Source: an uncultured Clostridia bacterium
GTDB taxonomy: Bacteria > Bacillota > Clostridia > UMGS1883
Direction of reading: 5' to 3'
Length of the DNA: 64,000 nucleotides
Assembly: GCA_934454525.1 (NCBI GenBank)
Contig: CAKSFM010000002.1
Location: 73,792 to 137,791, forward strand
Under the pieces are notes generated by a model, which saw only the letters and a program-made list of their open reading frames with translations, did no database searches and was not told the DNA's origin. The first letter of the stretch is position 1; each line of letters opens with the position of its first letter. Made by a program: the position numbers and the translations under genes. Shown piece after piece: positions 50,965-55,511 of the stretch.

Positions 50965-51654
50965 ATGAACAGCTTTTTCCCCCGTCTTAAAATGAAGTAT
51001 GCCGCCTCCGCGCTTGTTTTGGCGGCTGCGGCAGCAGTATACCTCTATTGCCTGTTTCTGCCCGGCGTTTGGAAAGGCGATGCATTTCTTTATCTTGATA
51101 AAAATAGCGGCTCTTTTTCCGGCTCTGACAAATATGCGCACTACAGCATGAAAATCACGCCGCATAAGAACGAAACGGACATTGAGTTTTCCGTCAACGG
51201 TGAAAAACGCGTTTACGGAATAACAAAGGGAGAAACCACTGTTATAACGCAGAACGGCGAACAGGTTTTTTCGGGAAAGGCATACCCGATGGATGATTAT
51301 GCCGTTCTCGTTGACGATGACGGAAAACTGTCAAACGAAATCACCGTCACCGCAGGGAATGAACCCCCAAGCACGGAGGAGCTTTTCCCCACCCTCGGAA
51401 CGCTCTATTCATGGGCGGACGGAGACACGGCGGACACGCGCGGAAATCCGTGGCTTGCACTCTTGATTCTTTTGGTGTCCGCATTGCTCGCGCTCGATAT
51501 CATCTTCCCCGATTTATTCTTCCTGCTTCGCCACGGGCTCGAGGTTGACGGCGGCGAGCCGAGCACATGGTATCGCGAAATGCAGATTTTCGGAAGATAT
51601 GCCTGCGCAGTCATAATAGTTGTGCTGTTAATATGCTCATTCACAACCCATTAA
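50965..51654 (+). CDS. Hypothetical membrane protein
   Basis: 229-aa ORF with an N-terminal TM helix and two C-terminal TM helices. No recognisable motif. Confidence 0.5.
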   Translation: MNSFFPRLKMKYAASALVLAAAAAVYLYCLFLPGVWKGDAFLYLDKNSGSFSGSDKYAHYSMKITPHKNETDIEFSVNGEKRVYGITKGETTVITQNGEQVFSGKAYPMDDYAVLVDDDGKLSNEITVTAGNEPPSTEELFPTLGTLYSWADGDTADTRGNPWLALLILLVSALLALDIIFPDLFFLLRHGLEVDGGEPSTWYREMQIFGRYACAVIIVVLLICSFTTH

Positions 51655-51668
51655 CCAATATGCACACT

Positions 51669-51712
51669 AAAAAAGAAGTTACTTTCTTTTGTAGAAAATA
51701 ACTTCTTTTTTT
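51669..51712. terminator. Bidirectional terminator at the left edge of the AT-rich islet
   Basis: AAAAGAAGTTA...TAACTTCTTTT stem with an A-run before and a T-run after. Confidence 0.7.
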
Positions 51713-51766
51713 ATACTATATTATTCTTATGCTTTCTCAGATTATATCTCATTAGGAGATGTTTAT

Positions 51767-52951
51767 TTACCAATTCCTGTCCTCATATGGTGTATTTAAT
51801 ACACCATCATTATTTAGCCTTTTGACCATTTTATCAAGTTTGCCGCGCCACAACTTCTTAAACCAAGTTGTATTGCCAAACCATTTTACAAGCGTAGGAC
51901 TTATTGCGTAGTATGTATGTATAAACGCTCTGCCGTGCCAAGTTTCTGCAAGAGTATAATCACGATAACGGCGAAGTGTCCATACTTGAGGACAATCGTA
52001 TGAGCCATAAACACAAGTTGCAACATAACAGCCCTCTTTGGGTTTATAAGATTGTAAACAACTAAAAACTTCCCAATGTTCTTTTTTCCATTGTTCAGAT
52101 GCCGAAATTTCACTAACAGGGCAACCTTTAAATGCCAACGAGTTTATCTGACTAACACTGTCGGGTATAGTTAACTTCCGTAAATTACTGCATCCACGAA
52201 AAGCTCCACTGTCAGAGCCATAACGACTATAATAGTAATCAATTACTTCAAGCCCTTCAGGGAAAACCACTTCATACAAACTTTTACAATTATGAAATGA
52301 GGATTGTCCTATTTTTTTTAATCCTTTGGGCAATTCCACATTAGATAACAAAGTACACCCATCAAATGCATCGTCAGCAAGACTTTCTAATGTACCTTGA
52401 AATGCTGTATGTTTCAAGTGCTTGCACCACTTGCAGACTACCGAATTAACTTTTCTTGGAAATATAATTTCTTTTATCCCCAAATTGCATAAATATACTT
52501 CTTTTATATTATCATTTAATTTTAAATTAGATAATTTTTCAGCATTAGATAAATGTAAAATCTCTAGTGAATTTGGCAAGGTTAATTCTTTTAGATTTTC
52601 ACACTCTCTTATCGCAAATTCAATAACTCCTTCTGGTATATTTATCTTTTCAATATACTTACTACACCCATCAAAAGCATCTACTCTGACCTCTTTTACA
52701 TTATCAGGAATAGATATAATTGTTGAATTACCGTTATATTGCGTTAAAATTCCACCTTTTACAACAAATTCCTGTGCATTAGAAAATACATTAATAACAT
52801 CTGCTTTTATATTATTTGTTGTGTTATAATTGTTGATAGCCTTTTCAACTATAAAAGGTGTACCGCAGAATTGACAGATTGCCGCATCCTTTGAATTGTC
52901 AATCTCTAAATTCGCACCGCAGTTAGTACATTTTGCTTGAACTAATGCCAT
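51767..52951 (-). CDS. Zn-ribbon / BspA-type leucine-rich-repeat protein with a conserved Cys-rich C-terminal domain
   Basis: N-terminus CTNCGANLE...CQFCGTPF (zinc ribbon). The middle has LRR_5-like repeats (IPD.V..V...AF.GC..., LP.GLKKIGQSSFHNCKSL, IPDSVSQINSLAFKGC). The C-terminus reads GCYVATCVYGSYDCPQVWTLRRYRDY...YYAISPTLVKWFG. GAGGGAG RBS upstream. Confidence 0.7.
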   Translation of the reverse strand: MALVQAKCTNCGANLEIDNSKDAAICQFCGTPFIVEKAINNYNTTNNIKADVINVFSNAQEFVVKGGILTQYNGNSTIISIPDNVKEVRVDAFDGCSKYIEKINIPEGVIEFAIRECENLKELTLPNSLEILHLSNAEKLSNLKLNDNIKEVYLCNLGIKEIIFPRKVNSVVCKWCKHLKHTAFQGTLESLADDAFDGCTLLSNVELPKGLKKIGQSSFHNCKSLYEVVFPEGLEVIDYYYSRYGSDSGAFRGCSNLRKLTIPDSVSQINSLAFKGCPVSEISASEQWKKEHWEVFSCLQSYKPKEGCYVATCVYGSYDCPQVWTLRRYRDYTLAETWHGRAFIHTYYAISPTLVKWFGNTTWFKKLWRGKLDKMVKRLNNDGVLNTPYEDRNW

Positions 52952-53093
52952 TCATATCTCCCTCATTTCCAATAATCTTTTTTCTCATTCAAAAATGTTT
53001 TATGCTTTGTTTCATTCCGTTTATCGACCTCATTCACATAATCACTTCCAGCACTTGATGTAATTATCCGTAAAGTGAAAACTACAAGAAGTA

Positions 53094-53747
53094 TTATTTT
53101 ACCGGTCCTATTGTTGTTACAAAGAAATGTATCAGCGATAAACCATATTCGTCAAAATCAGGAATGAGCAAATTTTGCATATCAGACGAAAGCTCCGTCA
53201 GTTTTTCATCAATTTGAAAAATGTTGATTTTATTTTCTCGGATATAAGTTGAAAGATAGGTCTTAAACCTTGTCATCAGAAATGCTCTGAATTTTTGCGT
53301 CAGTCCTGCTTGTGTCAAGCCGTTCTCTGTTCCGACTACTTTAACAAGCAGCTTTTTCCCGTCTTTTACACGCAATGTCATTTCTCCGCTTGCGCCTATT
53401 TGAATAGGGAAATTATATGTAGGCTCGACATATTCAACTTTGCTGTCCGTACCCCATTTGACAGCCATTTGCTCCGTTTTGTTTATGAAATAAACCTCGC
53501 AATGGAACGGCGTTTGATTATCAAACGGGTTGTTAAAAAATTTTCTGATAAGCGGTATGTTTTGTGTTTCGAGTGTGTGTCTGCCGGCTTCAAATACATC
53601 TAAAAGCTGACCGTTCATATAAAATACAGCTTGCTGTGATTCGTGAACGATAAGCTGCGTTTGTGTATTGAAGTCCTCGCAAGGGTGTTTCCATATAAAA
53701 GTGGAATTATCGCCCTCATATTTAATTACATTTGCAATTTGCGGCAT
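53094..53747 (-). CDS. SPFH-domain protein (COG4260 / YdjI-like 'virion core protein' family), short form lacking the usual C-terminal Zn-ribbon
   Basis: 217 aa. VIKYEGDNSTFIWKHP.EDF....QLIVHESQQAVFYMNG...DVFEAGRHTLETQNIPL pattern matches my memory of YdjI-type SPFH proteins. GGAGG RBS upstream. Confidence 0.7.
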   Translation of the reverse strand: MPQIANVIKYEGDNSTFIWKHPCEDFNTQTQLIVHESQQAVFYMNGQLLDVFEAGRHTLETQNIPLIRKFFNNPFDNQTPFHCEVYFINKTEQMAVKWGTDSKVEYVEPTYNFPIQIGASGEMTLRVKDGKKLLVKVVGTENGLTQAGLTQKFRAFLMTRFKTYLSTYIRENKINIFQIDEKLTELSSDMQNLLIPDFDEYGLSLIHFFVTTIGPVK

Positions 53748-53769
53748 TTTGCTTTTCCTCCCCCACTAT

Positions 53770-53793
53770 TGTCAAAAAGTGTACCTTTTGACA
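53770..53793. promoter_or_regulatory. hix-like recombination site A (TGTCAAAAAGT-GT-ACCTTTTGACA)
   Basis: Two 11-bp inverted half-sites around a 2-bp core GT. It lies 22 nt upstream of the SPFH ATG. Confidence 0.6.
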
Positions 53794-53915
53794 CCAGCCT
53801 AATTCAAGCGAAAAAGGAGATAACAAGCAAAAAATCTCGTCTTTTTTCTATAAAATATTGCTTTTTACCAAAATATGTGCTACAATTCAAAACATAAGAA
53901 TGACTGTCAAAAGGT
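53783..53915. other. Putative invertible DNA segment (promoter inverton), about 134 bp between crossover cores
   Basis: Bounded by sites A and B, whose cores (GT / AC) are reverse complements. Contains a sigma-70-type promoter. Confidence 0.55.
53858..53886 (+). promoter_or_regulatory. Sigma-70-type promoter inside the invertible segment (currently pointing away from the SPFH operon)
   Basis: TTGCTT, 17 nt, TACAAT on the + strand. An overlapping weaker face-to-face candidate lies on the - strand (TTGAAT, 17 nt, TAAAAA). Confidence 0.5.
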
Positions 53916-53928
53916 ACACCTTTTGACA
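53905..53928. promoter_or_regulatory. hix-like recombination site B (TGTCAAAAGGT-AC-ACCTTTTGACA)
   Basis: Perfect 11-2-11 palindrome, extended to 38 bp (53898-53935). It abuts the recombinase stop codon at 53930-53932 and may double as its terminator. Confidence 0.6.
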
Positions 53929-53929
53929 G

Positions 53930-55511
<1,582 letters not shown>

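Follow-up and report, generated by a model that had tools for sequence, protein, structure and literature searches.

Does a short DNA segment lying between a serine recombinase gene and an operon for an SPFH protein and a leucine-rich repeat (LRR) protein act as an invertible promoter switch? This question is raised by a locus in a 64,000-nt stretch of DNA from an uncultured Clostridia bacterium (GenBank assembly GCA_934454525.1, contig CAKSFM010000002.1, positions 73,792 to 137,791), which was analyzed at its full length and is called the window below. A sequence-only reading of the window had proposed that two sites in inverted orientation surround a promoter-bearing segment, and that the neighboring recombinase turns this segment around. 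On the evidence presented here, we put the probability at roughly 85% that the locus is a phase-variation switch, in which the serine recombinase inverts a promoter segment upstream of the SPFH/LRR operon. In the window, the promoter is directed at the 3' end of the recombinase gene; we call this orientation OFF, and the opposite one, in which the promoter would face the SPFH gene, ON. The features concerned are as follows.

53770-53793: site A, on the cargo side, with half-sites at 53770-53780 and 53783-53793 and the central GT at 53781-53782
53783-53915: invertible segment between the central dinucleotides, rich in A/T-tracts and found in the opposite orientation in contigs L001 and L002
53858-53886, plus strand: sigma-70-type promoter sequence TTGCTT-17-(TGc)TACAAT, with the -10 box ending 18 nt before site B
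53896-53947, plus strand: predicted OFF-specific terminator, composed of inner arm AAGAATGAC, site B, outer arm GTCATTCTT and tail TCCTTTTCC
53905-53928: site B, on the recombinase side, with the central AC at 53916-53917, the reverse complement of the site A core
53930-54532, minus strand: 200-aa small serine recombinase, presumed to be the invertase (PF00239 Resolvase, E 4e-26)
53094-53747, minus strand: SPFH/Band_7_1 protein of 217 aa, the first cargo gene (PF13421, E 7e-39)

Inverted sites and the two orientations of the segment

As read from the window, site A has the letters TGTCAAAAAGT-GT-ACCTTTTGACA and site B the letters TGTCAAAAGGT-AC-ACCTTTTGACA. In the output of a repeat finder, site A matched the reverse complement of site B at 23 of 24 positions (96%), as against 21 of 24 (88%) when site B was read directly. 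We also scanned the window with the degenerate pattern TGTCAAAARGTRYACYTTTTGACA, which covers both sites and their recombinants. At three or fewer mismatches, sites A and B were the only two matches in the 64 kb, and chance matches amounted to 0.00 in 100 dinucleotide-preserving shuffles. These results bear out the view that the two sites are real and mutually inverted.

The recombinase that had been reported to adjoin site B was also recovered. Its stop codon lies 1 nt from the site, and the gene is intact and carries the catalytic motif YVRVS(10)GTDQ, with the Ser at position 10. Among solved structures, its best match was Sin/Tn552 Bin3 (2r0q, E 3.9e-27, 98 bits), and further matches were gamma-delta (74 bits; gamma-delta/Tn3 resolvases at about 1e-19) and Gin (60 bits, about 1e-15). 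A Pfam search detected no HTH_7 domain (PF02796) and gave a weak match to HTH_23 alone, and the score against the NCBIfam Mpi model NF009949, 37.7 bits with a cutoff of 272, places the protein below the Mpi family. The suggested Hin/Gin-like architecture is therefore retained for the layout of the sites but not for family membership: Sin and gamma-delta are both closer to the recombinase than is Gin, the Hin/Gin-type invertase for which a full-length structure has been solved, and the sites are accordingly 'hix-like' in their layout only. At least 8,000 homologues were found at E 1e-30 or better; almost all of the 120 listed are nameless, and the sole descriptive name among them is 'recombinase family protein'.

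The segment was found in the opposite orientation in two contigs from different studies, namely L001 (Hadza, assembled with SPAdes) and L002 (assembled with MEGAHIT), whose recombinase is 100% identical to that of the window. Past the recombinase stop codon, the junction in both contigs reads GAATGAC-TGTCAAAAGGT-GT-ACCTTTTGACA-CCAGCCTAATTC, the last part starting with CCAGCC. In other words, the recombinase-side flank of site B is joined to the inner flank of site A, which is exactly the product predicted for inversion, and the entire 111-nt interior lies in the opposite orientation.

We considered whether such contigs could be assembly artefacts, and the palindromes ordinary bidirectional terminators or operators. 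Site B with its arms does score as a terminator on both strands, and the contigs with the ON state are both short and thinly covered. However, when site A and the reverse complement of site B are compared together with their flanks, the longest stretch that they share is a 15-mer, and molecules that are all OFF therefore cannot give rise to the ON junction in a de Bruijn assembly with k of at least 21. The k-mers of the ON junction are absent from OFF molecules, and the junction came from two assemblers and two samples. Given also the clean inversions at two other loci, where both junctions lie inside longer contigs (described below), we regard this explanation as extremely improbable.

The promoter TTGCTT-17-TACAAT was confirmed in the segment at the sequence level, where it has an extended -10 element (TG two bases ahead of TACAAT). 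Just past it, at 53896-53937, the palindrome of site B is part of a longer, 19-bp stem, which a terminator scan calls terminator-like on both strands. RNA folding of the 68-nt OFF-state transcript gave this 19-bp stem with -28.6 kcal/mol (z = -9.0). The predicted ON leader, folded as 76 nt, reached -14.4 kcal/mol with the 10-bp site hairpin alone, and runs to the GGAGG ribosome-binding site (RBS) with no U-run. An intrinsic terminator that forms in one orientation only is thus expected by prediction, and the geometry of promoter and terminator predicts that orientation would control the expression of the neighboring gene. In the modelled structure, the minus-strand copy of the hairpin would also end the recombinase gene. 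The sequence-only reading had raised the possibility of antisense RNA from the OFF promoter; since this promoter meets a 19-bp hairpin and a U-rich tail, a long version extending over the recombinase gene is unlikely. Its estimate of a 55-60-nt leader after inversion was reproduced at about 11 + 24 + 22 = 57 nt, taking the start at about 7 nt past the -10 box. We likewise found no room for a fixed SPFH promoter: the gap between the SPFH ATG and site A is 22 nt and already holds the GGAGG (about 53757-53761).

Several other signals lie at or near the sites. A perfect -35 hexamer, TTGACA, faces outward at the end of each site (window 53746-53775 and 53923-53952), and at site B the promoter scan reported TTGACA-18-GATATT; these outward hexamers are probably incidental. 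We rejected TTGACA-18-CAAAAT in site A as a fixed SPFH promoter because its -10 box overlaps the SPFH ATG. Within the SPFH coding sequence, the in-frame stretch GTACCCCATTTGACAGCCATT (53449-53479) is 77% identical over 31 nt to the right half of site B and its flank, which is probably a chance match. Finally, a strong 20-bp hairpin followed by a T-run (54577-54626) separates a YitT-family gene from the recombinase gene, and therefore the recombinase needs its own promoter within about 45 nt upstream of its ATG; no convincing promoter was identified in those 45 nt.

A recurrent site in gut Clostridia

When the 24-bp site was sought in related genomes, it proved to be widespread, and both orientations were found in assemblies. 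A scan for the pattern in one genome per GTDB species returned at least 119 loci, and a second, independent scan of metagenome contigs returned at least 120, so that the site recurs at no fewer than 239 loci in gut Clostridia genomes and metagenomes. The hosts include Oscillospiraceae, Lachnospiraceae, Erysipelotrichaceae, Eubacterium, Coprococcus, Evtepia gabavorous, Oscillibacter valericigenes and Clostridium sp. ASF356, among others. Cultured carriers include Evtepia gabavorous KLE1738, Coprococcus sp. OM04-5BH, Clostridium sp. ASF356 and Oscillibacter valericigenes An860. The window holds one pair of sites in its 64 kb; several metagenome-assembled genomes (MAGs) hold three or four loci each, and several loci within a MAG share the same site variant. 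Among 2.9 million viral contigs, the pattern had one match. The locus in the window is therefore not a one-off but a member of a very large family. The family loci are not phylogenetically independent; de-duplication and the independent replicate set gave the same answers.

Most loci hold a pair of sites. In pairing them, we left the second site free to carry any central dinucleotide. In the genome set, the cores were GT..AC in 49 pairs, AC..GT in 12 and AT..AT in 17, with no incompatible pair (78 of 78 compatible). The metagenome set contained 45, 10 and 19 such pairs, respectively, plus three exceptions (74 of 77 compatible). Overall, 152 of 155 pairs have compatible cores, as against about 35% expected under independent assortment. 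A serine recombinase leaves 2-nt overhangs that must pair after rotation, and such compatibility is what it requires. The three exceptions are pairs in direct orientation, GT/GT or AC/AC (L189:1240-1412, L221:13185-13357 and L197:1912-2084), and belong to one homologous locus type (L071, L099). One site is degenerate in both L189 and L221, and these direct-core pairs may be locked or decaying switches.

Complete inversions were found at two other loci. In L052, from an Evtepia gabavorous isolate, compared with L150, and in L015 compared with L188, both 80-nt flanks are conserved and the interior is inverted. In L015/L188, one half-site has a distinctive A at its position 9 that remains with the flank, and therefore the exchange took place within positions 10-15, at the site centre. 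The mapping is partly informative for L052 and L150, which differ by a G/A polymorphism in one inner half-site. Taken together with the two independent assemblies of the window locus in the opposite orientation, this family evidence supports the proposal of an inversion switch with an outward promoter, captured in the window in the orientation that does not face the cargo. A crossover at the central 2 bp, by which the adjacent recombinase would act as the invertase, is the interpretation that we favor.

The anatomy of the segments is also conserved. A sigma-70-like promoter lies near one site in 131 of 154 pairs and is always directed outward through that site, which extends to the family the promoter geometry seen in the window. 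Of these promoters, 112 have a 17-bp spacer, 103 have a -10 box whose end is 17-19 nt away from the site, and 61 have the TG of an extended -10 element. The terminal 5-11 nt of the segment can, in most assemblies, pair with the flank past that site, on the non-cargo side, and a T-run comes next; this arrangement of arm, site, arm and T-run looks like an intrinsic terminator. In the minority of loci where the promoter faces an RBS and ATG (for example L010, L033, L052, L065, L090, L109 and L115), the complementary arm and T-run are found on the opposite flank. The family hairpin had a mean energy of -20.9 kcal/mol as assembled, compared with -14.2 kcal/mol for the predicted flipped orientation; such folding energies are more informative than strict counting of consecutive Watson-Crick pairs in the arms, which under-calls terminators. 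As a separate observation, the palindrome of the promoter-distal site is also 5-10 nt longer with the cargo-side flank, without a T-run, in about 14 of 64 loci assembled as OFF (for example L040, L069, L098, L112, L124 and L127); site A of the window is without such an extension.

Next, we examined the spacing of the sites. Centre-to-centre distances cluster at about 115, 126, 137, 147, 158, 168 and 178 bp. The two sites in the window are 135 bp apart, or 12.9 helical turns, which places them in the main cluster. In the genome set, the Rayleigh statistic peaked at 10.5-10.75 bp (R about 0.69, phase 0 at 10.5), and it remained at 0.685 (p about 1e-11) after similar segments had been collapsed to 54 clusters. 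The metagenome set gave an R of 0.55, and the 41 clusters in it that are unrelated to the genome set gave 0.54 (p about 8e-6). Runs of at least four A or T within the segment interiors are also phased at 10.5 bp, with z-scores of 7.9 for A, 8.1 for T and 12.6 combined, relative to random placement; a first analysis that included the sites was discarded, as it was confounded by the tracts inside them (peaks at 10 and 11 bp, trough at 10.5). The phased A/T-tracts suggest intrinsic bending of the segment. The breadth of the 24-bp sequence across bacterial families, the GT/AC core rule and the 10.5-bp spacing are not what generic terminators would display, and they weigh further against the artefact explanation given above.

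The genes downstream fit phase variation, in that surface proteins dominate among them. Domains assigned to 47 cargo proteins comprised LRR_5 (11), LRR_8 (7), Big_2 (5), SLH (4), Phage_integrase (4), DZR (3) and Band_7_1 (2), plus Cna_B and others. BspA-type LRR proteins and other surface proteins are the commonest cargo, and an SPFH cargo recurs in L064. Two further kinds of cargo were observed. A tyrosine integrase (Phage_integrase with a SAM-like N-terminal domain) lies under the switch in L010:679-1611, L027:434-1348, L115:1321-2232 and L060:4031-5098, in MAGs of Erysipelotrichaceae and Lachnospiraceae, which hints at a cascade with one recombinase system controlling another. The homologous recombinase P0085, found in 69 blocks of the assembly collection, is linked to a switch upstream of an Mrr_cat (restriction-endonuclease-like) gene (2099-3003 in L133-L136; 2099-2233 in the shorter L136), which may be a phase-variable defence gene.

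Genomic setting, alternatives and mechanism

Behind the SPFH gene, the cargo operon of the window continues as follows.

51767-52951, minus strand: second cargo gene, of 394 aa, with a zinc ribbon, BspA-type LRR_5 repeats (PF13306, E 8.5e-33) and CFI-box-CTERM (NF041770, E 6.5e-20)
51669-51711, minus strand: hairpin with a T-run after the LRR gene, seen at the level of sequence; the cargo operon probably ends here, and the low-GC island has its edge here too

The SPFH/LRR cargo (window 51650-53800) has a GC content of 28-39%, as against about 50% in the flanking genes (a yitT-family gene, a GerA operon and a gene for an FAD-dependent protein); the recombinase gene is intermediate, at 42-47%. 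The cargo island therefore looks horizontally acquired. PADLOC returned no defence-system match for the SPFH protein, the LRR protein or the recombinase. An island of this kind introduces the question of whether it is a small mobile cassette, with the recombinase and its then res- or att-like sites serving for resolution or integration, so that inversion would be incidental and without regulatory function. The low GC content agrees with this idea, as does the finding that the nearest structural relatives of the recombinase are the resolvases Sin and gamma-delta. However, 152 of 155 pairs have inverted or symmetric sites, direct repeats being essentially absent, and accessory half-sites are lacking, with only 11 extra half-sites across 154 pairs. 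A conserved promoter position, a state-specific terminator and helical phasing would also be unexpected for a res site, and the same genes flank the island in every contig of this species. We therefore consider a mobile-cassette module very unlikely.

Some observations speak against a working switch at this locus and must be set beside the evidence above. All 10 of the long contigs of this species that we examined are OFF, like the window, and recombinase-linked loci in the family as a whole have the promoter facing the recombinase in 45 of 50 called cases. For the exact locus, the ON evidence consists of the recombinase-side junction in two samples. The distal ends of L001 and L002 run into a parental-type site, not into a cargo-side junction, and L001 continues into the 3' end of a second, divergent recombinase that is about 80% identical (L001:2115-2202, reverse complement). 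The promoter is missing from a stricter consensus scan because its -35 box, TTGCTT, matches the consensus at only 3 of 6 positions, and the U-tail of the terminator is interrupted (UUUCCUUUUCC). Given the predominance of OFF, flipping may be rare, or the strain effectively locked OFF. The predicted cargo-side ON junction reads AAGAATGAC-TGTCAAAAGGTACACTTTTTGACA-ATAGTG; a metagenome scan with the SPFH-side flank ACACTTTTTGACAATAGTGGGGGAGGAAAAGC returned 0 matches, so that this junction was not recovered. Probably, L001 and L002 arose when mixed molecules were joined in assembly at the promoter half common to them; for L001, the other possibility is a real arrangement of two convergent recombinases.

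The relatives of the locus gave a similar picture. A 227-aa version of the recombinase occurs in 12 contigs, with the four places shown all OFF (8 similar places besides), and the close homologues P0085 and P0106 were OFF in all 15 places listed for them, adding no orientation polymorphism. In L009:1-190, from the same sample as L002 (ERZ27286970), a contig that starts inside a site carries a variant segment, in the OFF state, upstream of the SPFH gene. The promoter half of this variant is the same as in the window and the promoter-distal half is unrelated, and its interior is one helical turn longer (122 nt versus 111 nt). This suggests that promoter-distal halves are exchangeable between strains or loci.

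We also considered the possibility that the switch is real, but that it is flipped wholly or partly by a trans-acting paralogue, or is effectively locked OFF here. The 3' end of a recombinase homologue adjoins a site, at 17-70 nt, in 56 of 112 judgeable pairs (31 of 56 in genomes and 25 of 56 in metagenomes). The other pairs, 25 of 56 and 31 of 56, respectively, or 56 in all, are orphans with no recombinase within at least 800 bp on either side, counts that depend on the 8-kb blocks and on contig ends. In MAG Lapin-026 bin80, for example, one recombinase occurs together with several orphan pairs (L069 with L040 and L105). As about half of the pairs are without an adjacent recombinase, action in trans must occur somewhere in the family. 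The predominance of OFF in assemblies and the second recombinase 3' end beside the same promoter half in L001 point in this direction as well. In contrast, the abutment of the recombinase stop codon on the site is conserved across very divergent hosts, the recombinase gene in the window is intact with its catalytic motif, and the ON junction co-occurs with this exact recombinase. Control in trans, or locking, at the window locus thus seems unlikely to us, and we retain a switch operated by the adjacent recombinase.

On this basis, we propose the following mechanism for the recombinase-operated switch. The recombinase would bind both 24-bp palindromes as dimers and cut at the central dinucleotide (GT in site A, AC in site B), and the segment of about 135 bp would be inverted by subunit rotation. 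In the OFF state, a transcript would start about 11 nt before site B, fold into the 19-bp hairpin with its U-rich tail, and terminate past 53937, at a predicted length of about 50-60 nt. In the ON state, the promoter would face site A, and transcription would pass through the leader, with its weak 10-bp hairpin, to reach the SPFH gene and then the LRR gene. Synapsis of so short a loop would be favored by an integral number of helical turns and by the intrinsic curvature that the phased A/T-tracts may give, and a nucleoid protein may assist. Phasing and curvature could in this way replace an enhancer and enforce inversion, which would matter most for AT/AT pairs. The role of curvature, the activity of the promoter and terminator, and the position of the cut are all predicted from sequence features in this scheme.

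Relation to known switches and significance

The locus is an inverton in the general sense, since inverted repeats surround a short promoter-bearing segment that occurs in nature in both orientations. With Hin/hix of Salmonella and Gin/gix of phage Mu, it shares a small serine recombinase whose gene lies beside the invertible DNA and two inverted sites built of A-tract half-sites of about 11-12 bp around a 2-bp core; as with Hin, the segment carries an outward promoter. However, the recombinase here is nearer to Sin and gamma-delta, with no HTH_7 detected, its gene lies outside the segment, and the segment measures about 135 bp rather than 1-3 kb. It leaves no room for an enhancer, as its 111-bp interior is taken up by the promoter and A/T-tracts. 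Helically quantized spacing, and a site that doubles as a predicted terminator stem, are further differences. Fis is not expected in Clostridia.

The Mpi system of Bacteroides fragilis resembles the present family in its serine recombinase, its short promoter segments, its link to surface structures and its many target loci, which are mostly distant from the recombinase gene. It differs in site sequence and host phylum, and about half of the switches found here have their own adjacent recombinase, which in the window scores below the NF009949 cutoff.

Among the Sin and beta-type resolvases of Firmicutes, Sin of Staphylococcus is the best match of the recombinase among solved structures, and the AT and AC/GT cores of the present family recall tested Sin substrates in which crossover site I had a central AT or AC (PMC2764113). 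With an AT core and no regulatory sites, activated Sin mutants gave inversion and resolution in equal yield (PMC2764113). Wild-type Sin, which carries out resolution between direct repeats, requires HU and a res site of 86 bp that includes regulatory site II (PMC2764113), whereas the family described here has two bare, inverted crossover sites with no accessory half-sites.

In Clostridioides difficile, the cwpV/RecV system also lets inversion decide whether an intrinsic terminator forms, upstream of a surface protein gene in a clostridial host; here the terminator is predicted. In cwpV, where the protein under control is a cell-wall or surface protein, the terminator forms at the junction of the inverted repeat and the invertible region, the promoter is located outside that region, and inversion is the work of a tyrosine recombinase (PMC2784873). 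By comparison, the promoter here is inside the segment and the enzyme is a serine recombinase, and the terminator would silence the OFF direction only and would also end the recombinase gene. As proposed, the switch works like the promoter switches of Hin and Mpi with a cwpV-like terminator, and it belongs neither to the Hin/Gin clade nor to the Mpi family nor to the Sin-type res systems.

Neither the site nor the family turned up in the literature that could be searched, including in searches for invertons in Clostridia, and the core sequences of the site had no relevant context in the literature searched. A 2025 inverton catalogue of a defined gut community, published in Microbiome, reports new inverted-repeat groups in Firmicutes_A and gives no mechanism for them; the 24-bp motif does not appear in its text supplements. 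The site may have been listed earlier in an inverton catalogue. The interest of the present finding lies in the breadth of the family, the helical quantization and curvature, the doubling of the site as a terminator and the orphan switches.

We see about an even chance that these loci represent a large, uncharacterized 'mini-inverton' class in gut Clostridia and their relatives, consisting of cassettes of about 115-180 bp with two bare sites and Sin-like recombinases, in which phasing and curvature, in place of an enhancer or accessory sites, make synapsis possible and limit it to inversion, even at fully symmetric AT-core sites, the site forms the stem of the OFF terminator, and orphan loci are served in trans. 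Such loci would provide a natural experiment in how a serine recombinase is regulated without enhancer or accessory sites, with phasing, curvature and the site-as-terminator as candidates. The compact, self-contained switches of about 135 bp are also possible tools for synthetic biology in Gram-positive anaerobes. A note of caution is that switches of this type break assemblies, and that reference genomes freeze one state.

Much work has been done on phase variation by promoter inversion in Bacteroides, E. coli, Salmonella and C. difficile, but the commensal Clostridia, which dominate the gut, have hardly been studied in this respect. Direct searches with the 24-bp site are possible, and the loci that it marks mostly concern surface proteins (LRR, Big_2, SLH, Cna_B), others being an Mrr-type nuclease or tyrosine integrases. 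Such genes are probably switched within populations of Oscillospiraceae, Lachnospiraceae, Erysipelotrichaceae and others. If the mini-inverton reading is true, then phase-variable genes would become predictable from sequence in hundreds of uncultured species.

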